Positions 1 to 10,966 of a DNA stretch of 10,966 nucleotides are shown in pieces. Location: positions 1 to 10,966 of the forward strand of contig JBBCAW010000047.1 of assembly GCA_051382295.1 (NCBI GenBank), read 5' to 3'. Under the pieces are notes generated by a model. That model was not told the origin of the DNA, made no database searches, and saw nothing but the letters and a program-made list of their open reading frames with translations. Made by a program: the position numbers and the translations under genes. This DNA comes from Bdellovibrionota bacterium FG-1. GTDB taxonomy: Bacteria > Bdellovibrionota > UBA1018. Position 1 is the first letter of the stretch. Each line of letters begins with the position of its first letter.

Positions 1-78
1 TCCGATCACCCGGAGGACAATCGAGATGAGTCCCGGCAACCAAGCAGGCGAAAGCAAAAAACCTATGTCCGTTTAGTC

Positions 79-107
79 AAAAAAAAGCCACCTAGAGGGG
101 TGGCTTT
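79..107 (-). terminator. Intrinsic terminator, probably the original (displaced) terminator of tRNA-Glu
   Basis: Stem AAAGCCACC (84..92) / GGTGGCTTT (99..107) with a 6-nt loop. The A8 run at 79..86 gives a U8 tail on the - strand. It starts about 10 nt beyond the left att core in tRNA orientation. Confidence 0.8.
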
Positions 108-116
108 GTAAAAAAT

Positions 117-127
117 AAATTGGCGTC
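117..127. repeat. att core, tRNA-distal copy (AAATTGGCGTC)
   Basis: Exact match to 10846..10856, extending to 13/14 (AAATTGGCGTCCCC vs AAATTGGCGTCTCC). On the - strand it reads GGGGACGCCAATTT, a tRNA-Glu-like 3' end. Confidence 0.85.
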
Positions 128-367
128 CCCTGGCGGCTGATCTCCGGACCGAGTGTATTGAATACGCTGCATAGGTAACGCCCAGTTCTGAAAGACGTTT
201 CCCACATGTTCCCGCAAATGGCAAGACGCTCCCGCAATTGATCCCGGGAGCGTTCCCGAACACATTGGACCACTTGGAACCGTCGCTAGTCCGAATAGAC
301 TGAGCATGATAAGGCTAAGTCGCAAGCACATAACTACCCGCATCACCCCCCGTGGAGGAAGATTTCA

Positions 368-601
368 ATGAGCCAAAATCCTTGTCAGCACGCCCACAAA
401 AAAGTAACGCATCTTCCCGAACTGGGAGGTCCAGGCGTTCAGCACGTCGAAACAATGTGCAGACTGAAAATGAGAAGCCAGGCCGACCAACTCCAAGTGT
501 ACCAGGCCCTGTTCGCAAAACATCTTGAGGGCAGCATGCTCAATAACACGTGCCCAGTGGCGGCTAGCGGCAAGTGGGCAGCCTGTCCTTTCAATACCTA
601 A
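368..601 (+). CDS. Small hypothetical protein, 77 aa, Cys/His-containing
   Basis: ATG with a good Shine-Dalgarno GGAGGA at 354..359 (8-nt spacing). It fills the gap between the left end and the XRE gene. No family recognised. Confidence 0.6.
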   Translation: MSQNPCQHAHKKVTHLPELGGPGVQHVETMCRLKMRSQADQLQVYQALFAKHLEGSMLNNTCPVAASGKWAACPFNT

Positions 602-667
602 TATGGCTGAATTTGTTCCCGGCCATTCGGCGACCATGCGTTACTACGCTTGGCTGGGATAACCGGG

Positions 668-898
668 CTATTTCTTCCGTGAAACTAATTCGACCTGTCG
701 GATTAGGTCGCTGACCGGACACCCAAGGGCCTTTGCGAGGGCGAATAGAGTTGTGAGGGTCGGCTGCTTGACCCCTCGTTCGAGCATCGAAACAAATGTC
801 CGGTCCACGTTGGAGCGGAAAGCCAACTCTTCTTGGGACAGGTTTCGGGCATTGCGATATTGTCGAAGCACAGTGCCGAACCTCTTTTTTAAATCCAT
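668..898 (-). CDS. XRE/HTH_3 transcriptional regulator, R-M controller (C protein)-like
   Basis: FGTVLRQYRNARNLSQEELAFRSNVDRTFVSMLERGVKQPTL matches the C-protein HTH pattern (SQE.LA...DRT[YF]...ERG). A C-box lies upstream. Confidence 0.9.
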   Translation of the reverse strand: MDLKKRFGTVLRQYRNARNLSQEELAFRSNVDRTFVSMLERGVKQPTLTTLFALAKALGCPVSDLIRQVELVSRKK

Positions 899-918
899 CC
901 GCTTCAGGTTCGGCTGAG

Positions 919-950
919 TGTGACTAGCGGTCCACGGACTATAGTCTACA
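919..950 (-). promoter_or_regulatory. C-box-type double operator
   Basis: The - strand reads TGTA-GACTATAGTC-CGTG-GACCGCTAGTC-ACA: a perfect palindrome at 937..946, a central CGTG and a degenerate second site, ending 20 nt before the ATG at 898. Confidence 0.8.
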
Positions 951-996
951 AACGAGATTGCCTATTGCTCCGAAAACAGGTACGACACTGCACTTT

Positions 997-1377
997 ATGA
1001 CGAAGGCCACCGAACACCGTAAGTCAGTTTTAATAGTCGAGGACAACCCGCATATCGGGGATGCGACGCTCCAGTTTCTCACTATTGAGGGGTTCACTGC
1101 GGTCTTGGTCGCTAATGGCCAAGAGGCTCTTGAAGCCATCCCAAATCTCAATGACCTTGGACTGATCCTTTTGGATTTGATGATGCCAGTGCTTAGTGGT
1201 CGGGAGTTCTTACAAGAGAGAATGAAGTCCTCGGCAATGATGGCTATTCCCGTTTACATCGTTTCTACGATGGCTCAGGAGAGCGACCTAACGACGTTAA
1301 ACGCTACCGGGGTGCTACCGAAGCCGACCGATTTGATGGACTTGCTCGCTACAGTTCGTCGGTACTGCGAAGGTTAA
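997..1377 (+). CDS. Stand-alone response regulator receiver (CheY-like) protein
   Basis: VLIVED acidic pocket, LILLDLMMP phosphoacceptor Asp, conserved S/T (IVST) and KP motif, with no output domain. ATG at 997 is preferred over the 958 start in the ORF track. Confidence 0.9.
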   Translation: MTKATEHRKSVLIVEDNPHIGDATLQFLTIEGFTAVLVANGQEALEAIPNLNDLGLILLDLMMPVLSGREFLQERMKSSAMMAIPVYIVSTMAQESDLTTLNATGVLPKPTDLMDLLATVRRYCEG

Positions 1378-1595
1378 TTGTGCCCGGGCACATGATGACC
1401 TGAAGGTTGGCCCTTTGACTGGTACGGGCAAGAACGGCATAGCCTTGATGTGCTCTGGGTGTTTAACGGGCCTGTCCTTGCGACCAAGCCTCCCTGAATC
1501 CAGTTCGAGTCGCCCAGTGAAATTCGCCAAAACCGTTTTCCTCCTGAAGGGGAAAGAGACTTCGCAAAGTGTGTCCCGTGCCGCGAGTTGAACGC

Positions 1596-2006
1596 TTAAG
1601 CCCACCCCAGATGCTGAAACACCGCCACAAATCCGAAGTAGATAGCCGAGCCAAGGAGCAGCATCCCAATGTTGGCCATTGGATTCGCAGAGGGGGTCCG
1701 GCCACTCGCGTGGTAGCGGCGAACCATCTCCCCGGACAATGCACCGACCATGAAAATGAGGAGCCCATAGGTTTGAAGCATTCGATGCTTTGACAGCGCA
1801 CTCGCCAGGACCGCCAGACCAAGCACTTGAAATCCGATGACGTAGTAGCCCTTCGCAAAATAGTACCAAAACCAGAATATCGCGGCCCAGATGTTGAATC
1901 TCTTCGAGGCCAGCGGGCTCGTCGCTCCGTCCTGGGTAGTATTCAGCGATTGGCCTTCAGTCTTCCCCTCCCGAGGGGAATCGGTCGTGTCAGACATAGG
2001 CTTCAC
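1596..2006 (-). CDS. Small multi-pass membrane protein, DUF2628-like
   Basis: FNIWAAIFWFWYYFAKG motif followed by several hydrophobic segments. The GTG start overlaps the stop of the upstream gene (GTGA); an alternative ATG is at 1997. Confidence 0.7.
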   Translation of the reverse strand: MKPMSDTTDSPREGKTEGQSLNTTQDGATSPLASKRFNIWAAIFWFWYYFAKGYYVIGFQVLGLAVLASALSKHRMLQTYGLLIFMVGALSGEMVRRYHASGRTPSANPMANIGMLLLGSAIYFGFVAVFQHLGWA

Positions 2007-3463
2007 TTCTTTCTGTACTCGCCTTGGTGGGTACCCCCACTACTGCATAACACTCTGCAGTCTCCGCTTTCATCTACGTTCATCCAGTTGTTGGCAAATC
2101 TGAAATTCAGAGTGCACTTGCCATCCTTGATAACGACCGTGCCCTGTCCTTTGTAAGCTTCTGACATCACCAGATTCAAACCATCGCGCTTAAAGCTACA
2201 TCCGTGTTCCTTGTGAGAGTACTCAATATTCACCAACGTCGGACTAGACATACTGAGGTCAAAACCATGCCCGTTGTGATCCCTATACGGGCCAGGGGCG
2301 TCCCGAAGGAATGCATCGCGCTCCTTGTTCGCCTCGGCTTCGACTTGAGAAAGGGCCTTCACATCCTCGGTGGATAGTTTGTGCCCGCCTAGCTGCAGGA
2401 GTCCCGCACAGCAGCCGGGTGAGGCACCCGCCACCTCCCAAGAGATGGGTTCATCCTCACCCCGATCTTGGCTAAACTTCATCGTCATGGCGCAACCCCC
2501 GGTGTTCTTCAAATCTGAAACGAACCCTCTATCAGGCTCGGAATAATTTAGGGCGACACTCTGTTCTGAGAACGATAGGACCGTACGGTCGGATGAGCTA
2601 TTAGCGAGACATGTGCCCCGAGCACTAACTCGATATTGTGTGTCAGAAACCTTCTCGATTTTTAGGTGCTGATCTTTTGCACCATCAACTGTTGCGCCGT
2701 ATTCGCCTGGTATGTTTGCAAGAAGGCTTTGCCGTTTTTTCGTTTTTGATATTGCGTTGCAGTCGAGTTCAGTACGCTCGGTACTCTGTGGGATTTTCTC
2801 GGCAACCTTGTGTGTAAGCTGAGCAAGTATCTCGAAAGCAACCTTTTCGCTCTCGCCGATATTTTTGGTTTTTTGTTTCCGACCATTCATTTCAACCGAT
2901 TTCAGAACGAATGATTTGGACTCGTCGGCGATAGAATCATGCTCCAGGTCAAAATCCAGTGTGGAAGTCTTCAAGGTCAGTGTCGCGCCACGGGGCGTTT
3001 TGCTATATTTCTTGAATGCTCCGGCCTTAGATGCATAGCAGATAAACTCCTTTAGCGTGTGTACGACCTGAGGAAGCGTCGTTGCCACCCTCGTTTCCCA
3101 GTCTGAGTCGGCCACACCGGCTTGGGTTTTGTATTTTGCGCAGTCGGCGGTCTGACCTGTAGCCGCTATTTCGCCTCTCTTTTCGTCGATAGCGTCCTCT
3201 ATTTCAGTGGTGAGCTTAACAGCTTCATTGCTGTCGCCATTTATCTCGCGAACCTCGCAACGAATCTCTTCAAGGCGGCGTAGGTTTGGTTTATCGGCCT
3301 TCATCGCTCCGAGTTCGTCCCTGAGTTTGCGCAAGGGAATAGTTTCCTGATCGGATTGGGCGTTCTGTTTCTCCGCCAGAATCTGTTTTGTTGATTTGGC
3401 CTCGACTGACGAGGAGACCATAAAGGCAGTGAGAACAGCCAAAACTATGTGTCTTGAGATCAT
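2003..3463 (-). CDS. Secreted/periplasmic Cys-rich hypothetical protein, 486 aa
   Basis: SD AAGGAGG, Sec signal peptide (MISRHIVLAVLTAFMVSSSVEA|K), 12 Cys, long open frame. Confidence 0.85.
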   Translation of the reverse strand: MISRHIVLAVLTAFMVSSSVEAKSTKQILAEKQNAQSDQETIPLRKLRDELGAMKADKPNLRRLEEIRCEVREINGDSNEAVKLTTEIEDAIDEKRGEIAATGQTADCAKYKTQAGVADSDWETRVATTLPQVVHTLKEFICYASKAGAFKKYSKTPRGATLTLKTSTLDFDLEHDSIADESKSFVLKSVEMNGRKQKTKNIGESEKVAFEILAQLTHKVAEKIPQSTERTELDCNAISKTKKRQSLLANIPGEYGATVDGAKDQHLKIEKVSDTQYRVSARGTCLANSSSDRTVLSFSEQSVALNYSEPDRGFVSDLKNTGGCAMTMKFSQDRGEDEPISWEVAGASPGCCAGLLQLGGHKLSTEDVKALSQVEAEANKERDAFLRDAPGPYRDHNGHGFDLSMSSPTLVNIEYSHKEHGCSFKRDGLNLVMSEAYKGQGTVVIKDGKCTLNFRFANNWMNVDESGDCRVLCSSGGTHQGEYRKK

Positions 3464-3481
3464 ATATTATCCTCCTTGAAA

Positions 3482-4156
3482 CTATTCACTGGCTGGCTTC
3501 CGACCAGACTTGTCTTCATCTCGAATCGCAAAGGCGTCATCCAGCGAGTGCTCGTGCCGTCGGATGACTTTGCCCACGTTTCCCTCGGAAGTGACCGTCG
3601 ATTGCCCCTGGTATCGCTTGGCTGGTAGTCCCGCCTTTAGTCTTGCTTGGCCCATCTTGCGTTCGCAGTCTTCGCTCTGCGTTCGGACGGTCTTGACCAT
3701 CTTCATCAGCGTGGTCTGGTAGTTTCGTTCGATTTGAATACGCTTGAGGAAGTCTTCCTCGGATTTGAAGGCGAGATTGCCATTTTCAGTTAAGCCAAAC
3801 TCCTCCTTTACCGCAGCAGTCTGCTTCATATTATCGACTTCGGGTAAGGGGGTTACCTCGCCGGTGCCGCCCAGCCTGGGGTCGGCCACATCCTCGCGGC
3901 ACCACTTGAGCATGTGATACTCGTGGGCTAGCTCATCCTCATACCGGGAGTTCGACCACTGGGTTCCGCGCAGTTCATCGGCGGCGTTAGTCTGCTTCTG
4001 GATGGTGACCTCACCGTTCTTTAGGCCGATGTTGCCCTGGGCCGACTCTCCCTTGGCATCTATCTCGGTATCGAGCTTCCGGGGTCCGGTTGAGCAAGCC
4101 ATGACGAACACCAAGCAAAAAGCCGAGGCAATCGTACCGGCAATATATTGTTTCAT
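3482..4156 (-). CDS. Putative lipoprotein, 224 aa
   Basis: SD AGGAG, and a signal peptide ending in lipobox-like VMAC (Cys21) followed by ST. The predicted helical body has two further Cys. Confidence 0.85.
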   Translation of the reverse strand: MKQYIAGTIASAFCLVFVMACSTGPRKLDTEIDAKGESAQGNIGLKNGEVTIQKQTNAADELRGTQWSNSRYEDELAHEYHMLKWCREDVADPRLGGTGEVTPLPEVDNMKQTAAVKEEFGLTENGNLAFKSEEDFLKRIQIERNYQTTLMKMVKTVRTQSEDCERKMGQARLKAGLPAKRYQGQSTVTSEGNVGKVIRRHEHSLDDAFAIRDEDKSGRKPASE

Positions 4157-4310
4157 AATGACGCTCCTATCTCAGACTTCGTTAAGACAGCACACAAATA
4201 CACGAGCAGCATGTACGGGTATCGGAAGACACCTTCCTAAACTTGACCTTCTTTAACAATTCCTTCCCATAGGAAGAGAATGACAGACCAAAGCTCCGAC
4301 CATTGGAGCT

Positions 4311-4544
4311 ATGAGCAAAGCAAAGACCAAAGAAGAGCTGTTTTTGGAACGCCTTGGAAAGCATATCGCCCAGGTGAGGAAGGCGAAGGGATACTCCCAG
4401 GACCGGATATACCTGGAAGGCGGCTTCTCTCGCGGTACCATGAGCAAGATCGAAAACGGTTTGGTGAACCCGGGCATTTGGACGCTGAAGAGAATCGCTG
4501 AAACCATCGGCGTTCCGCTGAAGAGGCTTGTGGACTTCGAGTAG
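4311..4544 (+). CDS. XRE/HTH_3 transcriptional regulator
   Basis: LGKHIAQVRKAKGYSQDRI...SRGTMSKIENGLVNPGIWTLKRIAETIGV is a typical XRE HTH. It is divergent from the lipoprotein operon. Confidence 0.9.
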   Translation: MSKAKTKEELFLERLGKHIAQVRKAKGYSQDRIYLEGGFSRGTMSKIENGLVNPGIWTLKRIAETIGVPLKRLVDFE

Positions 4545-4555
4545 TCGATTGAGAC

Positions 4556-4828
4556 TCACGATTTCCGCCTTCCCTGACGCCGTGATGCCTCCTCGTCCAG
4601 TTGGAGCGCGTGTTCGGCGATTTTGGTGCTAATCTCGTTGATGATGGCGGCAAGCCCTCGGTTGACCTCCTCGGCATCGAGTTCGGAGTACTCGGGGTCG
4701 CGTTGGTGCTCGATGAGAAACCCTAGCCCCCGGAGTTTCGCGGCTTCGAGGCCGAGGCTGTACCAGACGGGGTTGGCATCCGCACCCACCCCGGAATCGT
4801 TCGTTTTCGGAGTGCGTTTTCTAGGCAT
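4556..4828 (-). CDS. Hypothetical protein, ~90 aa, predicted helical
   Basis: ATG at 4828 has SD AGGAGG (4834..4839) inside the end of the resolvase gene, with an 8-nt overlap suggesting coupling. No family recognised. Confidence 0.7.
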   Translation of the reverse strand: MPRKRTPKTNDSGVGADANPVWYSLGLEAAKLRGLGFLIEHQRDPEYSELDAEEVNRGLAAIINEISTKIAEHALQLDEEASRRQGRRKS

Positions 4829-5468
4829 CGTAACCTCCTGAATTCCCATCCCCGGCGGATGGGCTTTCTGTACACAATTTCGGAGTGGCCAAAGCCCGGC
4901 CTACCGCCCCCGCCGACACCCCCAAGCGTTTCTGAATCTGAGACCAACTGAGTCCCTGGGCTCGAAGGCCTTTGATAGCGGCGTCGTTGATTCGCTTGGG
5001 TCTACCAAGTGTCTTGCCAATCTTTCTAGCGTGGGCCAGCCCCATCAGGGTCCGTTCGCGAATAATGTCGCGCTCGAACTCCGCGAACGATGAGATTAGA
5101 TTTCCGAGAAGACGCCCTGCGCTTGTAGTGAGATCCACCTGCTCCTTGATGCTGACAAATTGAACCCCAAGCTCGGCTAGTTCTTGAAGGAGCACGACCA
5201 TGCCACGCATGCTCCGAAACATTCTGTCGAGCTTGAGCACGACGATAACGTCGATTCGACGTGACCTTGCCAGCGCGAGCAGCTGCTTGAGCCCCGGGCG
5301 CGCATCGGAGCCGCCCGAGTAACCCTCGTCCACCAGCTCTGAAGTAATCTCCCAACCGCGAGCAGCGGAATACCGCCGCAACTCCTCGACCTGGATTTGC
5401 GCGTTTTGATCGGTAGTTGAGACCCTTGAGTAGCAACAGGCCCGAAGTTTTCGATCTGATGGAGCCAT
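4821..5468 (-). CDS. Small serine recombinase (resolvase/invertase family) with C-terminal HTH
   Basis: YSRVST with the catalytic Ser, VLKLDRMFRS, FAEFERDIIRERT..GL, LGRP, then an HTH (GLSWSQIQKRLGVSAGAVGRAL). SD AAGGAGG. Confidence 0.95.
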   Translation of the reverse strand: MAPSDRKLRACCYSRVSTTDQNAQIQVEELRRYSAARGWEITSELVDEGYSGGSDARPGLKQLLALARSRRIDVIVVLKLDRMFRSMRGMVVLLQELAELGVQFVSIKEQVDLTTSAGRLLGNLISSFAEFERDIIRERTLMGLAHARKIGKTLGRPKRINDAAIKGLRAQGLSWSQIQKRLGVSAGAVGRALATPKLCTESPSAGDGNSGGYDA

Positions 5469-5650
5469 AATAGCCTCCTTTCCGTCGGCAATCGAAGCCG
5501 CACATACCCGATAATTATCCTCGGGAATGTTTATGAAGTCCTCTTAAATCCTTGAATTGACTTAACAACCAGAAAGGCTTGAAAAAATCCTCCAAAGTCG
5601 CGGGTGACTTGCCCAGGTTCGTACGTTCTATAGTGTAGGGGGATACGTTA

Positions 5651-6451
5651 ATGACCGAATTCAAGAATGCGCGCGAAATCGTCGCCGCAATGTGGGGTCG
5701 CATCTGGGAGCTGCATAAGATCGGCGAGGGTCTTGGACCGGCGACCGCCCGCGTGACAAAAGACCTCGGACCATCCGCCATAAGCAGCTATCTGACAATC
5801 CTTGCCGATTTGACTGACCAGATTCCCCATCGCAAGGAACTTGAAGAGCTGGAGCGGATTTCTGGGAAGCCGATTTTGCGGGACGTTGTCGATGCCCTCG
5901 ATCTGCGGAAGGCATTAGAATTCCGAGACACTGAGTTGGATGATGGCACCCCAATACGATGTACAATATGGATGCGCGCTGATTCTCACCTTGGCCCAGA
6001 TGAAAAAAGAAATGCGTTCGTGGCCGTTGGTGTCCGGCCTTTCGACAAGCGCGCAAATATCCGGGACCAGTCCAAAGCGCCTCTCCTCTGGGCGAGGAAA
6101 GAGCACCGTAATATTTGGCAGCGTGATATTAAGCAAAACAAGCTACGGGCTAACAAGCAAGGCGGTGTACATCTTGCCACTAAAAGAATTGCTGAAGCGG
6201 CACAAACTATCTCTGAGCAGTGGGACATAGCTAAGAAGCACGCAAGCAAGTTGATCGAAAAACGCCTGACGAAAGAGATCGAATCTGATTTCGAGAAACG
6301 ATGTCATGACCTCCTGTCTCGGCCCCATGTTTGCCTTGCTGATATCCTAAATTGGCGAATTGCACTTGATGCCGAAATCTGGGGGCTTGCTGACTACAGT
6401 CCTAAGTTCTCCGCACACCAAGCCAAAATGATGACACAGAAAACGAAATAG
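5651..6451 (+). CDS. Hypothetical protein, 266 aa
   Basis: Long ORF with SD-like GGGGGA upstream. It is the first gene of the + strand core and has a basic helical C-terminal half. No family recognised. Confidence 0.75.
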   Translation: MTEFKNAREIVAAMWGRIWELHKIGEGLGPATARVTKDLGPSAISSYLTILADLTDQIPHRKELEELERISGKPILRDVVDALDLRKALEFRDTELDDGTPIRCTIWMRADSHLGPDEKRNAFVAVGVRPFDKRANIRDQSKAPLLWARKEHRNIWQRDIKQNKLRANKQGGVHLATKRIAEAAQTISEQWDIAKKHASKLIEKRLTKEIESDFEKRCHDLLSRPHVCLADILNWRIALDAEIWGLADYSPKFSAHQAKMMTQKTK

Positions 6452-6467
6452 CGCTTCGGCTGACCAA

Positions 6468-6494
6468 CGTCGTTCCCGTCGTTTCCGTCGATTC
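6468..6494. repeat. Three tandem imperfect 9-mers (CGTCGTTCC CGTCGTTTC CGTCGATTC)
   Basis: Read directly in the intergenic region upstream of the putative replication genes. Confidence 0.7.
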
Positions 6495-6755
6495 CACGAC
6501 CATCTTCTACCCCACCACCGCACATCCAGTCCTTGGATTTGCAGAATTTTGCCACCTTAACTACCTCAACCACATTTTGAATATATCTCCGCGAGTCGTG
6601 ACTTTGTCCCGACGCCGCAGCGGCGGCTATTTGATTCGATGGTCAAACCCGTACTTGCGGAATTTTGCCAGCACCAGAATCGGCGTCGCAACTGTGGCCA
6701 GTATAGCGAAATCGCCGGGTACAATTCCAGGCATAAAACAAAAGGAAGAGAAAAA

Positions 6756-7172
6756 ATGAAAGTAGAAATGATCAACCGTCCGTCAAAAACGATGAACAAC
6801 AATGAATGTTCCAGTGCTGAGGACCGAAGATATCAACCCAGCTTTGCCGAGGCCCCTAGTTGGAACCGTCGCAGGTATCGCGCACCATTTGGACTGGTAA
6901 GTGTACTGCCGCACTACTCTGAAAAAGGTACCGAGTGCGTTCGTTTGTCTATGCGGGCTCACGATGGGCCGCATGCAGGGGAAGTCCTGGATCAATTTTT
7001 GCCGGTGGCGGGATATGGGGCTGACCGTCTGAAGCAATTCCTGGATATCTTAATTCCCGGATACAAGGGTGAGCCTTTCAATGGCGGCCAGCTCATTGGA
7101 AAGAAATTTTTCGCCAAGGTTGAGGCCCAAGGAAACTTCCTGGTCATTACGCCCCTCGGCCTCCTTGCCTAA
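6756..7172 (+). CDS. Putative DUF669-like single-stranded DNA-binding protein
   Basis: The pattern SEKGTECVRLSMRAHDGPHAGEVLDQFL...RLKQFLDIL...QLIGKKFFAKV resembles phage DUF669/OB-fold proteins. ATG at 6756 follows AAAGGAAG, and the gene lies immediately upstream of the helicase-like gene. Confidence 0.55.
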   Translation: MKVEMINRPSKTMNNNECSSAEDRRYQPSFAEAPSWNRRRYRAPFGLVSVLPHYSEKGTECVRLSMRAHDGPHAGEVLDQFLPVAGYGADRLKQFLDILIPGYKGEPFNGGQLIGKKFFAKVEAQGNFLVITPLGLLA

Positions 7173-7263
7173 CAAATAATAAAAGTGATTTCCGGTGGAG
7201 GCAGCATGTCGCCCTAACAGGCAGATGCCTCCACCGACTCCCACAGCTACGAACGAAAGATTT

Positions 7264-8763
7264 ATGGAAAATAATATTCAGAGCCCCGTTACGAGTAAGA
7301 AAGAAAAGAGAAAAGAGAAGCCACAACTCACGTTGGTGGAAACAGAGCATGCCATCGAGGTCGCTGGCGTCCCATTTCTGCGTCTTTTCGTAGACCAGTT
7401 TTCGGAAAGCCACGCGGCATACCTCAGCCGGGATGGCCACCCAGGAGTAGCTCCAATCCGCAGCCAGCTTTGCCGGTCCTACATTCGGCAATACCTCTAC
7501 GAGCAGGCTGGCCTCCTGTTGACCAAAAAGCATCTTGAAGAAATCGTAGAAATAGTTGAGGGATTTGCGCTAGTCCGCAACGACAAAATAGACCTTTGCA
7601 TCCGAGTGGCGCGGGACAATGCCGACATCCTCGTAAACGGGATGCCCTTGATCTACCGAATTTCCCCTGGCGTCTGGACAGAAGACAGTTCTGGAATTCT
7701 AAAATTTCGGACACCTTCGACAGCGAAGGCTTTGGCTCGCCCCATTGAAGGGGGGGACCCAAAAAAGGTATTCAATTTTGTGAACATCGAGGATGAGGAC
7801 GAGAAACTGCTCCTTCTTGTCTACCTCGTTGCATCGTTCGTTCCTGATATTCCGCATCCCATATTAGCGATCCACGGCCCACAGGGTTCCGGAAAAAGTT
7901 CGCTGCTCCGATTTCTAACTCGCATCATCGACCCCAATACCGCCGAAGAGGTCCATCTGCATGGAGAGGTGGAGTTTGTCCAATCCGCTTCCGAAAGGTG
8001 GGTTGTTGGCATCGACAACGTAACGAATATCTCTGATCGAATCTCCGACCTGCTTTGTAAATTCGTCACGGGAGTATCATTCACCAAACGGAAGCTCTAC
8101 ACCGACAACGACCAATTTGTCCGAAGCTTTAAGCGGGTGGTGATCCTGAACGGTATCGGCCTCCCGATGAGGAAGCCCGACATTCTTGATCGAACCATCA
8201 TCATTGGTCTCAGCCGTATTAAGAGCGACATGCGAAAATCGGAGTCCTCTCTTGAAGAACAGTTTGAGAATGTCCGGGGCGAAGTTGTGGGTGGACTATT
8301 TGACTTGCTGGCCAAGGCTCTTGCCATACTGCCAACTCTGGGTAAGACGCCGCTTCCTCGTCTGGCCGATTTTGGAAACTGGGGACGCGCCATTGCCGTA
8401 GCAGCAGGATATAGCGAAAAGGATTTTGTTCGGGCCTATAGCAAGAATATCCAGCGGCAGGTCGAAGAAGCTCTCGAAGCCTCCCCTCTGGCAACTGTGA
8501 TCCAATACTACCTTGACCCCGAGAGGGAACGATACGGCAAGGACAACCGCCTTGAAGGGACGCCAACCCATGTGCTCCGGGAACTCAAAAATATTGCGCC
8601 CCAGGCAGGAATTGAGGAAAGGGTGCTGCCGAAATCTGCGCGAGGTTTAGGCCGTGGACTGATGGAGGTAAAAGCTACTCTGGAAGAGTACGGCTATGTC
8701 GTTGAAAGGAGCCGGGGCAAAGACCGCAGAATCCAAATCCTCCCCCCAAAACCTACAACATGA
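7264..8763 (+). CDS. P-loop ATPase, probable replicative helicase of a mobile element, with a C-terminal winged-helix-like region
   Basis: Walker A GPQGSGKS, Walker B VVGIDN, RKLYTD, sensor-like VILNG and Arg-finger-like PDILDR. No primase domain is evident. ATG at 7264 is preferred because the 7195 GTG lies inside a hairpin. Confidence 0.75.
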   Translation: MENNIQSPVTSKKEKRKEKPQLTLVETEHAIEVAGVPFLRLFVDQFSESHAAYLSRDGHPGVAPIRSQLCRSYIRQYLYEQAGLLLTKKHLEEIVEIVEGFALVRNDKIDLCIRVARDNADILVNGMPLIYRISPGVWTEDSSGILKFRTPSTAKALARPIEGGDPKKVFNFVNIEDEDEKLLLLVYLVASFVPDIPHPILAIHGPQGSGKSSLLRFLTRIIDPNTAEEVHLHGEVEFVQSASERWVVGIDNVTNISDRISDLLCKFVTGVSFTKRKLYTDNDQFVRSFKRVVILNGIGLPMRKPDILDRTIIIGLSRIKSDMRKSESSLEEQFENVRGEVVGGLFDLLAKALAILPTLGKTPLPRLADFGNWGRAIAVAAGYSEKDFVRAYSKNIQRQVEEALEASPLATVIQYYLDPERERYGKDNRLEGTPTHVLRELKNIAPQAGIEERVLPKSARGLGRGLMEVKATLEEYGYVVERSRGKDRRIQILPPKPTT

Positions 8764-8846
8764 AAACGAGGTGAAAAGAAAACAAGAGCAACGGAGAGCG
8801 GCCCCGGCCACGTCCTCGCAAATTGGCGGGGTCGCTAACCAACGCG

Positions 8847-9290
8847 ATGGATACACAGAAACCCCCAATACATCCGCTTCCGATGGGCGAGCAAAAAGTT
8901 TGCGTGGCTTGCGCCCAGTCGCTCCTGCTCTCTGAATTCTATCGGAAGGAAGCGAGGGACGCGACCCGACCACGTTGGGAGCGTGTTTGTAAACATTGTA
9001 AGAGGAGCCAACGGCGGAAAGCTGCCCATAGGAAAAAAGAAACGTCCCATGCCAATGCTGCCGACACAGCAAAAACGCCCAGCCTCGAAAATGGCGAGGT
9101 ACCGATGCTACGTGTGGACAGTATTTTAAAAGCAAATTTGGAGACAGAGGAGTTCCGGCGAGTCTTGTCAGTGTTCCAAACACTTCTCGGAATTGAAACA
9201 AGAACTACAAGACTCCAAGGGGGCGACACTCGGACCCGATTAAACTCGCGGAAAGCTATAAAATCGGATTTAAGGGAGCCCGAAGTATGA
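8847..9290 (+). CDS. Zinc-finger (CxxC...CxxC) basic protein
   Basis: KVCVAC...SEFY...VCKHCKR followed by a K/R-rich stretch. Its stop overlaps the integrase start (ATGA, 9287..9290). The start is uncertain (8847 or 8883). Confidence 0.7.
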   Translation: MDTQKPPIHPLPMGEQKVCVACAQSLLLSEFYRKEARDATRPRWERVCKHCKRSQRRKAAHRKKETSHANAADTAKTPSLENGEVPMLRVDSILKANLETEEFRRVLSVFQTLLGIETRTTRLQGGDTRTRLNSRKAIKSDLREPEV

Positions 9291-10906
9291 GCCATACATG
9301 GGAGCTAGATAGAAACAAAAAAGCCATCGGCATCGTTAGGGTAAGCAGCCATCGACAAAAGGATGGTGGCTCTCCAGACTTGCAAAAAGAAAAACTTCAA
9401 CTGTACGCCGCCGAAAATGACCTGAACCTTGTCCGCGTTGGGAGCATCGTCGAATCGGCAAAAACGACCGATGGCCGAAAAAAGTATTCCGCTGAAATAT
9501 TGCATGCGCTCGACAATGATATTCGGCACGTCCTCTTTTACATGACGGACCGCGAGGCGCGGAACCTCAGCGATACTGAGTCCAACGAGCTTTTGGTATT
9601 GCAGGGTCGGATTATTATCCATTACGTTAACGACCGCAAAGTTCTCCACCAGACCAGTCCGACCTCTGATTTTTTCTCGCGGGACGTAAATGCGCTCGTC
9701 AATAAACATTTCTCGCGGGTCTTAGCGGAGAAGATGAAAGATGTGATGTTGAGGAAGGCGGAGGATGGCTGGTATCCTGGCAACCATCCCCCTCTTGGGT
9801 ACGTCCACCAAAAGCCAAAGGGCGAGAACGGACGCATCGCTAAACGTGGCTCGATAATCGTACCCAATCCGAACCCTCGTATTGTGAAGCTCGTACAAAG
9901 AGAGTTCGACCTCCGGGCAGAAGGCCTCTCGTTTGGCGAGATTCGAAAAATACTTCTTGAAGAGGGATGGGTCGAACCCAACAAGATTGGTAGCTACTCG
10001 AAGCATGGCATTGAAGCGCGGCTGAAAAACAAATTCTACTCCGGCGTCTTTGATTGGCCACAAGGGGTCGAGCACACCGGGAAGCACGAGCTAATAATCG
10101 ACCAGCGGATTCTCGGGCGTGTTAAGGCCAGCTTCGGTAAGCGTGGGGTACGCCGCCTGAGTCCGGGGGAGCAGGGTATTTTCTCGGGTGGGTGGCTCCG
10201 TTGCGCCGACCCCGCCTGCGGCCTCCAAGTAATCTACGACCCGAAGGTAAAAAAGATTAAGGCCACAGGGGAGACAAAATCCTTCCCATACTACCACTGC
10301 TCCAACTCCCGTAACATTCACCCCACGCTCGTTGGCAGGTATGTGACCGAAGAGCAGCTCTGGGCAGACTTCGCCCCCGTCGTACAAGAAATCGCTATTA
10401 GCGAGAACTTTGCGCAAGAGATTGCTGACGCTCTGAATGAGATACATGAAAAGGCAAAACAGGCGGTCAAGCGTGACATCCAGAACTACCGAGAGGGGTT
10501 AGCCAATCTCGAAAAGCGAGAGGACAAACTCTACGATGATTTGCATTCCGGAGTCCTCGACAAGACGGGGTACAAACGGCAACTCGACCGCGTCCGGGAT
10601 GAACGCCGCCGATACACCAACCTGCTCGAACAGTCCCAGCTTGCAATTAGTGACGCCTGCATGGTTACCGCCCGTAAGATACTCGGACTCGCTACCAACG
10701 CGAAATCACTCTGGAATCTGGGTACCCAAGAGGAGCGGATGGAGTATCTCAAGAATGTCTGCTCGGACCCAGTCCTAGATGGCGTAACTGTCCGATACGA
10801 AATGAAAAAACCCTTCCATACGATTGCTCGTATGAAGGGTTTTTCAAATTGGCGTCTCCACGGGGATTCGAACCCCGGTTACTCCCGTGAAAGGGGAGTG
10901 TCCTAG
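9287..10906 (+). CDS. Large serine recombinase (integrase)
   Basis: N-terminal IVRVSS catalytic motif and DREARN, recombinase domain (G.YPG..PPLGY; LKNKFYSG; GKHELII), zinc ribbon (LRCADPACG...YYHC) and a coiled coil. The last 18 codons and the stop overlap the tRNA in antisense. Confidence 0.95.
   Translation: MSHTWELDRNKKAIGIVRVSSHRQKDGGSPDLQKEKLQLYAAENDLNLVRVGSIVESAKTTDGRKKYSAEILHALDNDIRHVLFYMTDREARNLSDTESNELLVLQGRIIIHYVNDRKVLHQTSPTSDFFSRDVNALVNKHFSRVLAEKMKDVMLRKAEDGWYPGNHPPLGYVHQKPKGENGRIAKRGSIIVPNPNPRIVKLVQREFDLRAEGLSFGEIRKILLEEGWVEPNKIGSYSKHGIEARLKNKFYSGVFDWPQGVEHTGKHELIIDQRILGRVKASFGKRGVRRLSPGEQGIFSGGWLRCADPACGLQVIYDPKVKKIKATGETKSFPYYHCSNSRNIHPTLVGRYVTEEQLWADFAPVVQEIAISENFAQEIADALNEIHEKAKQAVKRDIQNYREGLANLEKREDKLYDDLHSGVLDKTGYKRQLDRVRDERRRYTNLLEQSQLAISDACMVTARKILGLATNAKSLWNLGTQEERMEYLKNVCSDPVLDGVTVRYEMKKPFHTIARMKGFSNWRLHGDSNPGYSRERGVS
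10805..10844 (-). terminator. Element-supplied intrinsic terminator for tRNA-Glu, inside the integrase CDS, possibly bidirectional
   Basis: The - strand reads AAAAACCCTTCATACGA-GCAA-TCGTATGGAAGGGTTTTTT: a 17-bp stem with one bulge, a GNRA loop and U6. It starts 5 nt after the tRNA CCA. Confidence 0.8.
10846..10856. repeat. att core, tRNA-proximal copy (AAATTGGCGTC)
   Basis: Exact match to 117..127. It spans the last 7 nt of the tRNA plus 4 nt of flank. Confidence 0.85.
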
Positions 10907-10925
10907 GCCTCTAGACGATGGAGAC
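10850..10925 (-). tRNA. tRNA-Glu (anticodon TTC)
   Basis: 76 nt: acceptor stem GTCTCCA/TGGAGAC, D arm GTCTAGAGGCCTAGGAC, anticodon arm CTCCC-CTTTCAC-GGGAG, T loop GGTTCGAATCC and encoded CCA. Confidence 0.98.
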
Positions 10926-10966
10926 GCAAACACTCATTCATATCTATTTGAACGAAACAGACGTTT

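Follow-up and report, generated by a model that had tools for sequence, protein, structure and literature searches.

The 10,966-nucleotide (nt) window analysed here, meaning the whole stretch of DNA under study, is the entire contig C47 (GenBank JBBCAW010000047.1) of the 158-contig assembly of Bdellovibrionota bacterium FG-1 (GCA_051382295.1), and it carries an integrated element that spans about 10.73 kb from core copy to core copy. The element is predicted to be moved by a large serine integrase whose own gene contains the attachment site of the circular form (attP), with the crossover placed at or beside the codon for Trp522. Given that position of the crossover, the excised form would encode an enzyme of 538 amino acids (aa) with a 17-residue tail, which integration at a tRNA-Glu gene would exchange for a tail read from the antisense strand of the tRNA. 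That this swap occurs, and that it is conserved across the integrase family, can be stated with high confidence; what the swap does for the enzyme is a matter of more graded judgement. The features on which the argument depends are as follows.

1..116, no strand: left host flank, matching contig C59 of the same assembly and now cut off from the tRNA by the element
117..127, no strand: left attachment (att) core AAATTGGCGTC; attL-type junction of the host B arm and the element P' arm
121..174, plus strand: orphan 3' integrase fragment encoding the free-form tail WRPLAADLRTECIEYAA followed by TAG, in frame with the core; score 22.9 with the position-specific scoring matrix (PSSM) described below
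128..10845, no strand: body of the element, 10.7 kb, covered by Pfam, PHROGs and NCBIfam scans
9287..10906, plus strand: large serine integrase gene in its integrated state, 539 aa, with Pfam Resolvase and Recombinase domains
10846..10856, no strand: right att core; attR-type junction of the element P arm and the tRNA B' arm
10850..10925, minus strand: tRNA-Glu(UUC) (ARAGORN), the integration target, regenerated by the element
10857..10906, plus strand: replacement tail LHGDSNPGYSRERGVS followed by TAG, a translation of antisense tRNA-Glu, of low AlphaFold2 confidence

The integrase, the ends of the element and the exchanged tail

The open reading frame (ORF) at 9287-10906 is assigned to the large serine integrases because of its Pfam domains (PF00239, Resolvase, residues 13-161, E = 3.6e-10; PF07508, Recombinase, residues 200-281), the architecture of its AlphaFold2 model, the structural matches of a homologue and a profile alignment to the LI integrase. 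In the model, long helices at 373-421 and 426-453 form part of a zinc-ribbon and coiled-coil architecture; a Foldseek search with the model of the homologue P0018 returned the SPbeta, Bxb1, phiC31 and LI integrases as its top matches, and the family profile aligns to the LI integrase so as to cover chain residues 78-318. Across a 50-sequence alignment R18 and S20 are nearly invariant, and C306, C311, C338 and H345 are invariant. The closest curated model is CcrB, far below whose cut-off the window integrase scores.

The ends of the element are fixed by an empty site in the same assembly together with the core repeat. The 11-nt core occurs in exactly two copies in the window, against an expectation of 0.01, and two copies were found in 0 of 200 shuffles. 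In contig C59, window positions 1-130 (99%) are fused directly to positions 10846-10966 (100%), giving an unbroken tRNA-Glu followed by a single copy of the core and an intrinsic terminator, and this junction is the empty chromosomal site (attB). An earlier sequence-only reading of the window, referred to here as the first-pass annotation, had placed the ends of the element at these points and had named the empty attB as something to look for; the core repeat bears out the one, and C59, which joins the left flank to the tRNA side, supplies the other. As occupied and empty sites are present in one assembly, the sampled population contains both alleles. The intrinsic terminator native to tRNA-Glu, a stem-loop found at 84-107 on the minus strand by a terminator scan, lies in the left host flank. 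The first mismatch past the core is a C at window position 128 in the left copy, against a T at 10857 in the tRNA copy, which gives GGGGACGCCA for the left copy, now displaced, and GGAGACGCCA for the functional tRNA. The acceptor stem is intact on the tRNA side only.

The codons for Asn521, Trp522 and Arg523 occupy 10847-10855, inside the right core copy, in agreement with the first-pass placement of the att core within the integrase ORF, and the TGG of Trp522 (10850-10852) reads antisense to the CCA end that the tRNA gene encodes. Because the ORF overlaps the minus-strand tRNA-Glu, its last 19 codons are antisense to that gene, and the integrated form is a protein that ends FSNWRLHGDSNPGYSRERGVS. 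At the opposite end of the element the frame from 121 reads WRPLAADLRTECIEYAA and closes at a TAG at 172-174, which, added to the 521 residues before the core (521 + 17), yields the excised form; the exchange of a 538-aa for a 539-aa protein proposed by the first-pass annotation is thereby upheld. The two forms differ over their last 15 (excised) and 16 (integrated) residues, the free-form tail of the window ending EYAA and the integrated form ending GVS.

The family and its free-form tails

Searching protein sequences gave 120 homologues, with identities of 38-83%; the small number that are named come from Bdellovibrio and its relatives. When their tails were classed by local alignment to the window's own ...KKPF...W anchor, antisense-tRNA tails (...DSNP... 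and similar) were found in 53 and a conserved tail, W..h[DE].[FL]RT, in 32, leaving 35 unclassed (very short in 10 cases, lacking the Trp in 8, lacking the C-terminal domain in 8 and of some other kind in 9). The integrase is present in 37 of 401 sampled genomes of Bdellovibrionota (genome search, E <= 1e-60), and in the loci examined its gene enters the 3' end of a tRNA-Arg, Ser, Ala or Glu. Metagenomes contributed a further 70 loci, 50 of which reach the C-terminus, mostly as integrated forms. Single-protein scans of viral and genome contigs yielded no close relatives; it was an alignment-based metagenome scan and the whole-genome searches that found them.

A PSSM whose training set was the 32 annotated tails was used to score all 9,634 peptides that start at a TGG, on the integrase strand and upstream of the gene, in the 56 loci with at least 3 kb of upstream sequence. 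Twenty-seven peptides in 26 loci score at least 8, the next best scoring 4.7, and a core of at least 7 nt in common with the Trp region of the integrase accompanies 19 of these 27, as compared with 2.4% of all TGG sites. The orphan tails stand 3.7-19 kb upstream of the integrase, which implies element sizes of that order. Applied to the 232 sites whose core reaches 7 nt or more, a permissive regular expression had given 21 matches; it was judged too loose, since 5.4 matches were expected by chance, and was dropped in favour of the PSSM, and two of its matches (L107 and L111) look spurious. The gene-spanning layout is the rule in a Bdellovibrionota integrase family that targets several tRNAs, and integrated elements conserve the free-form tail even at their far end, where it is an orphan that is not expressed.

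Three observations on individual members of the family may be set down here. The ends of a 7,627-nt metagenome contig (L088) overlap by 94 nt with a single 3-nt (TGG) indel, giving WW or WWW at the crossover, and its integrase runs across an intact attP; such a contig fits a circular element, about 7.5 kb in size, that was caught in its attP form. At another locus (L059; contig C8 of genome G386) one integrase has upstream of it two orphan tails that differ from each other and both score highly, at positions 2914 and 4010, which suggests tandem or decayed elements at one tRNA. Five free-form integrases (P0066, P0092, P0090, P0096 and P0110) have their conserved tail intact but are encoded on contigs whose length, 40-117 kb, exceeds what the small elements described here would account for; they may reside on plasmids or phages, or in tandem arrays in which the tail comes from the neighbouring element.

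Pooling the 32 annotated tails with 25 from the loci gives 57 distinct free-form tails, the ends of which are distributed as follows.

All tails: n = 57; Ala end, 25; Ala-Ala end, 11
Tails of 19 aa or fewer: n = 32; Ala end, 20; Ala-Ala end, 11
Tails longer than 19 aa: n = 25; Ala end, 5; Ala-Ala end, 0
Tails from loci, outside PSSM training: n = 25; Ala end, 9; Ala-Ala end, 4

Tail length is sharply peaked, with 17 aa in 22 of the 57. In the genome background an Ala end is found in 7.4% and an Ala-Ala end in 1.7% of a crude set of 3,608 ORFs, and the enrichment statistics for both ends ignore shared ancestry; their small binomial P values are not to be read literally. The antisense-tRNA tails, counted by eye, end in Ala in 1 case of 53. 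The terminal Ala is encoded by GCA, GCT, GCC and GCG. In a tree of 55 tail-less cores, the members with Ala and Ala-Ala ends are scattered over several clades, whereas two clades hold most of the long tails; among the 11 members that end in Ala-Ala, identity between cores is 41-75% (median 46%).

The AlphaFold2 model of P0018, built from an alignment of 34 free-form homologues, has a helix at 518-532 in its free-form tail, from the Trp onward, with a mean predicted local distance difference test score (pLDDT) of 93 over residues 511-520, 92 over 521-530 and 77 over the last four; the integrated tail of the window, modelled from a mixed alignment of 50 sequences, has a pLDDT of 56 and 49 over its last two blocks, a comparison that is suggestive only because the alignments differ. 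The free-form tail is accordingly described here as a predicted helix with a free Ala-Ala end. The family profile leaves the LI integrase alignment at profile position 501, directly after the last beta-hairpin, and the approximately 35 C-terminal residues beyond it, in which fall a short helix, the Trp and the helix of the tail, are for that reason regarded as an addition of this family.

The same codons also appear to serve as DNA. The F-R-T codons of the motif read TTT/CTT CGA/AGA/ATA ACY, and the best match to TTCGAAC falls at index 22, counted from the TGG, in every one of the 25 P' arms, as against index 17, in the T-loop, in 21 of 25 antisense-tRNA (B') arms; in the P' arm of the window the motif is TCCGGAC at 143-149, a match at 5 of 7 positions. 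For the LI integrase, the motif of the zinc-ribbon domain is described as standing closer to the centre in attB, by 5 bp, than it does in attP (Rutherford et al., PMC3783163). A T-loop-like motif 5 bp further out in P' than in the tRNA arm is as expected under the attP half-site rule given in that description, and the fragment 121..174 would then double as the P' half-site of attP. Inside the motif the information by codon position is 1.25/1.24/0.88, third positions being almost as conserved as the others, and outside it there is a coding-like periodicity of 0.73/1.08/0.41 in the proximal and 0.38/0.58/0.14 in the distal part. From these patterns the tail seems to be under DNA and protein constraint at once.

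What the exchange may do

Some functional difference between the two isoforms is somewhat more probable than not. The reading favoured here, though given a little less than an even chance, is that the free form carries a proteolysis tag and a regulatory helix, and that both are lost on integration, the exchangeable tail being a state-dependent regulatory part of the enzyme. C-terminal Ala-Ala is the end by which ClpX recognises ssrA tags; the host genome has clpP-clpX, and the tag peptide of its transfer-messenger RNA (tmRNA) is GTADYAMAA. An exposed, nonpolar Ala or Ala-Ala end could mark the free-form integrase for ClpXP-type turnover, in the manner of the ssrA-like tags of mycobacteriophage BPs, and the integrase would then be active only during a short window after entry or excision. 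Integration would strip both tag and helix, and loss of the helix may also alter activity or direction. That the tail is specifically a proteolysis tag is a tentative and somewhat doubtful proposition when taken by itself.

A number of points weigh against this reading, in addition to the cautions already attached to shared ancestry and to the differing alignments. The proposal of the first-pass annotation that stability or directionality may differ between the isoforms is pure inference, and the attP junction of the circular form, which it had suggested seeking, was looked for in the assembly and none was found. The conservation it anticipated among homologues is found in part: W..h[DE].[FL]RT is common to free-form tails and 25 of 57 end in Ala, but Ala-Ala is a minority end, confined to 11 of 57 and missing from the long-tailed clades, none of the 25 tails of more than 19 aa having it, and a degron therefore cannot be the family-wide role. 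In some members the Arg of F-R-T is replaced by Ile (ATA). The high third-position conservation within the motif points to selection on DNA, and as the D-F-R-T core is at least partly conserved at the DNA level it is weaker evidence for a protein function. The confidence of AlphaFold2 in the tail could mirror the conservation of the alignment columns. In the single element of the window, about 16 codons from the core to the next stop is the chance expectation, and tail length was for this reason rejected as evidence of selection in the window alone.

A rather unlikely alternative is that the tail is a directionality or activity element instead of a degron, the helix packing close to the zinc-ribbon domain and to the coiled-coil base and being needed for, or biasing the enzyme towards, attP x attB synapsis. 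An equally doubtful counterpart of this alternative concerns the prophage form, in which the enzyme deprived of its tail would be locked, weakened, altered in specificity as is Mx8 IntX, or biased to excision. In favour of such a role, the helix motif is family-wide and Ala-Ala is not, and in the predicted structure the helix comes directly after the last strands of the zinc-ribbon domain. F532 of the SPbeta integrase, near the C-terminus and between residues for the recombination directionality factor (RDF), is reported to be important for directionality (PMC11722253), and integration of Mx8 is described as modifying and not inactivating its integrase (PMC6070905). The conservation of the motif is, on the other hand, confounded by the DNA site with which it coincides, and no RDF was identified in the element.

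It is also conceivable, but unlikely, that the exchange is an architectural by-product, in which the gene of a compact element simply runs over the tRNA 3' copy and the P' half-site, the tail has no role in the protein and the isoforms behave alike. The 5-bp-shifted T-loop motif covers the best-conserved tail codons, with their high third-position conservation, and would account for them without reference to the protein. The integrated tails show no pattern and vary in length from 2 residues to over 60, so the enzyme tolerates arbitrary ends, and the LI/A118 integrase ends about 35 residues earlier, where the profile alignment stops (501). A trivial explanation of this kind was weighed also by the authors who described DsiB, a Dehalococcoides recombinase considered below (PMC3146451). 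Left unexplained by it are the peak of length at 17 aa (22 of 57), the enrichment of terminal Ala and Ala-Ala, in which each of the four Ala codons is used, the coding-like periodicity past the motif and the confident prediction of a helix in P0018.

The proteolysis tag with loss of a regulatory helix, the directionality element and the by-product are not all mutually exclusive. The most ambitious combination, which is decidedly improbable, would make the exchangeable C-terminus a self-contained state sensor for the whole tRNA-targeting family: the free form would have a helix that sets the coiled coil for integration and an Ala-Ala tag that makes the enzyme short-lived, and the prophage form would be stable and biased to excision or inactivity. 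Were this true, the position of attP would encode direction and timing, instead of or beside a separate directionality factor, and the same 30 bp would be codons, half-site and T-loop mimic.

Other contents of the element, precedents and significance

The remaining features of the element were assigned from the library scans and from RNA folding, and several further ORFs have no assigned family in Pfam, PHROGs or NCBIfam.

958-1377: response-regulator receiver gene (library scans)
4821..5468, minus strand: small serine recombinase of resolvase/invertase type, 215 aa (Pfam Resolvase, E = 5.6e-41; PHROG DNA invertase)
7195-8763: VapE/AAA-like gene (library scans)
10815..10836, both strands: hairpin resembling a terminator, within the integrase ORF and with T-runs after it on either strand

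No phage structural or lysis families were recognised in the element by the three scans, and its identification as a prophage was rejected on that ground. Counting the window, 5 of the 16 related elements that were reconstructed have a homologue of the small recombinase, and the occurrence of this gene beside a large integrase recalls the DsiA/DsiB and CcrA/CcrB pairs. A 155-aa ORF at 8823-9290 on the plus strand, with weak HNH/endonuclease VII-like PHROG matches, overlaps the start of the integrase by ATGA and is translationally coupled to it; it is a candidate helper or directionality factor.

The hairpin at 10815-10836 is encoded by integrase codons just before the Trp (KKPFHTIARMKGFS), in a region (10805-10845) where A-runs and T-runs flank it. 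Its RNA fold has an energy of -24.6 kcal/mol (z = -4.6, with 0 of 200 shuffles equally stable), and on either strand it has the score of an intrinsic terminator. Read on the minus strand, it stands 14 nt past the 3' end of tRNA-Glu, where it could substitute for the native terminator at 84-107, displaced 10.7 kb by integration; on the plus strand it would stop integrase transcripts ahead of any stop codon, with non-stop mRNA and tmRNA tagging as a possibility. Comparable hairpins were seen by eye in the P arms of four other loci (L050, L063, L067 and L068).

The closest published precedent, set beside the window integrase by its published description, is DsiB, the large serine recombinase of the ssrA genomic islands of Dehalococcoides (McMurdie et al., 2011; PMC3146451). 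As described there, DsiB is a serine recombinase some 540 aa long, the 3' end of whose gene overlaps attL in every case, with a stop codon set by the sequence past the junction, and a small serine recombinase of about 200 aa stands alongside, as does that at 4821-5468 in the window; the authors speculate that full function is attained only on the circular element (PMC3146451). CcrB is the closest curated model for both DsiB and the window integrase. The two systems differ in their targets, the tmRNA gene ssrA in the one and tRNA-Glu in the other, and the overlapping part of DsiB is divergent in length and sequence, the available portion of the paper reporting no conserved free-form tail, Ala-Ala end or T-loop mimic (PMC3146451). 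The ParB, Mom and RecF families of the Dehalococcoides module were not detected in the 15 ORFs of the window by Pfam, PHROGs or NCBIfam, and the element was accordingly rejected as a Dehalococcoides-type ssrA island, on this ground and on that of its different target.

Among other systems, IntP/IntX of Mx8 likewise has attP within the integrase coding sequence, and integration is described as giving the gene a new 3' end, by which the enzyme is modified and not inactivated (PMC6070905). The Mx8 enzyme differs in being a tyrosine recombinase, of another superfamily and another mechanism. Integration of Mx8 replaces a much longer C-terminal part, and no degron is known to have been proposed for its integrase. 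In BPs and its kin (clusters G, I, N and P), attP lies inside a coding sequence and integration removes an ssrA-like tag from the C-terminus, and the BPs integrase is described as having a C-terminal proteolysis signal as well (PMC4557955). There, however, the gene that is cut is the repressor, and the integrase is a tyrosine recombinase that keeps its tag on integration; proteolysis has been demonstrated experimentally in that system, whereas the tag of the window integrase is a prediction from sequence.

The canonical integrases of LI/A118, SPbeta (SprA), Bxb1 and phiC31 share with the window integrase their domain order and fold and the 5-bp rule for attB and attP motifs. In those systems attP lies outside the integrase ORF. 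The window family is further distinguished by some 35 extra C-terminal residues relative to LI, by its tRNA 3'-end targets and by the use of the T-loop as recognition motif. Archaeal integrases of the SSV1 type have attP inside the integrase gene, which integration alters; they differ in that they are tyrosine recombinases and that the gene is split into two large parts, whereas the window family exchanges only the last 15-16 codons.

An integrase gene that spans attP has thus been published already, for a tyrosine enzyme in Mx8 and for a serine enzyme in DsiB as these reports describe them, and the arrangement is less unprecedented than the first-pass annotation implied. A search of the literature outside the subscription journals, judged for the other papers by titles and the opening of abstracts, turned up the DsiB paper as the only account of a serine integrase with attP inside its own gene, and the same literature yielded no description of a free-form tail that is conserved, of an Ala-Ala end or of a P' arm mimicking the T-loop. 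What is new here is the conserved, often Ala-ended tail, predicted to be helical, together with the dual-coded half-site.

Serine integrases are valued for genome engineering because they are simple and unidirectional, and the natural control of their direction and timing is still being worked out. An enzyme whose own reaction rewrites its extreme C-terminus is a natural experiment on the role of that region, and the family described here supplies compact integrases of about 540 aa that target universal T-loop sequences of tRNAs. A 30-bp stretch that is used at once for coding and for recognition illustrates how closely an integrase gene and its attP can co-evolve. Should the exchanged tail act as a degron or as a switch of direction, integration-dependent regulation, known from the repressors of mycobacteriophages and from Mx8, would extend to the serine integrases.

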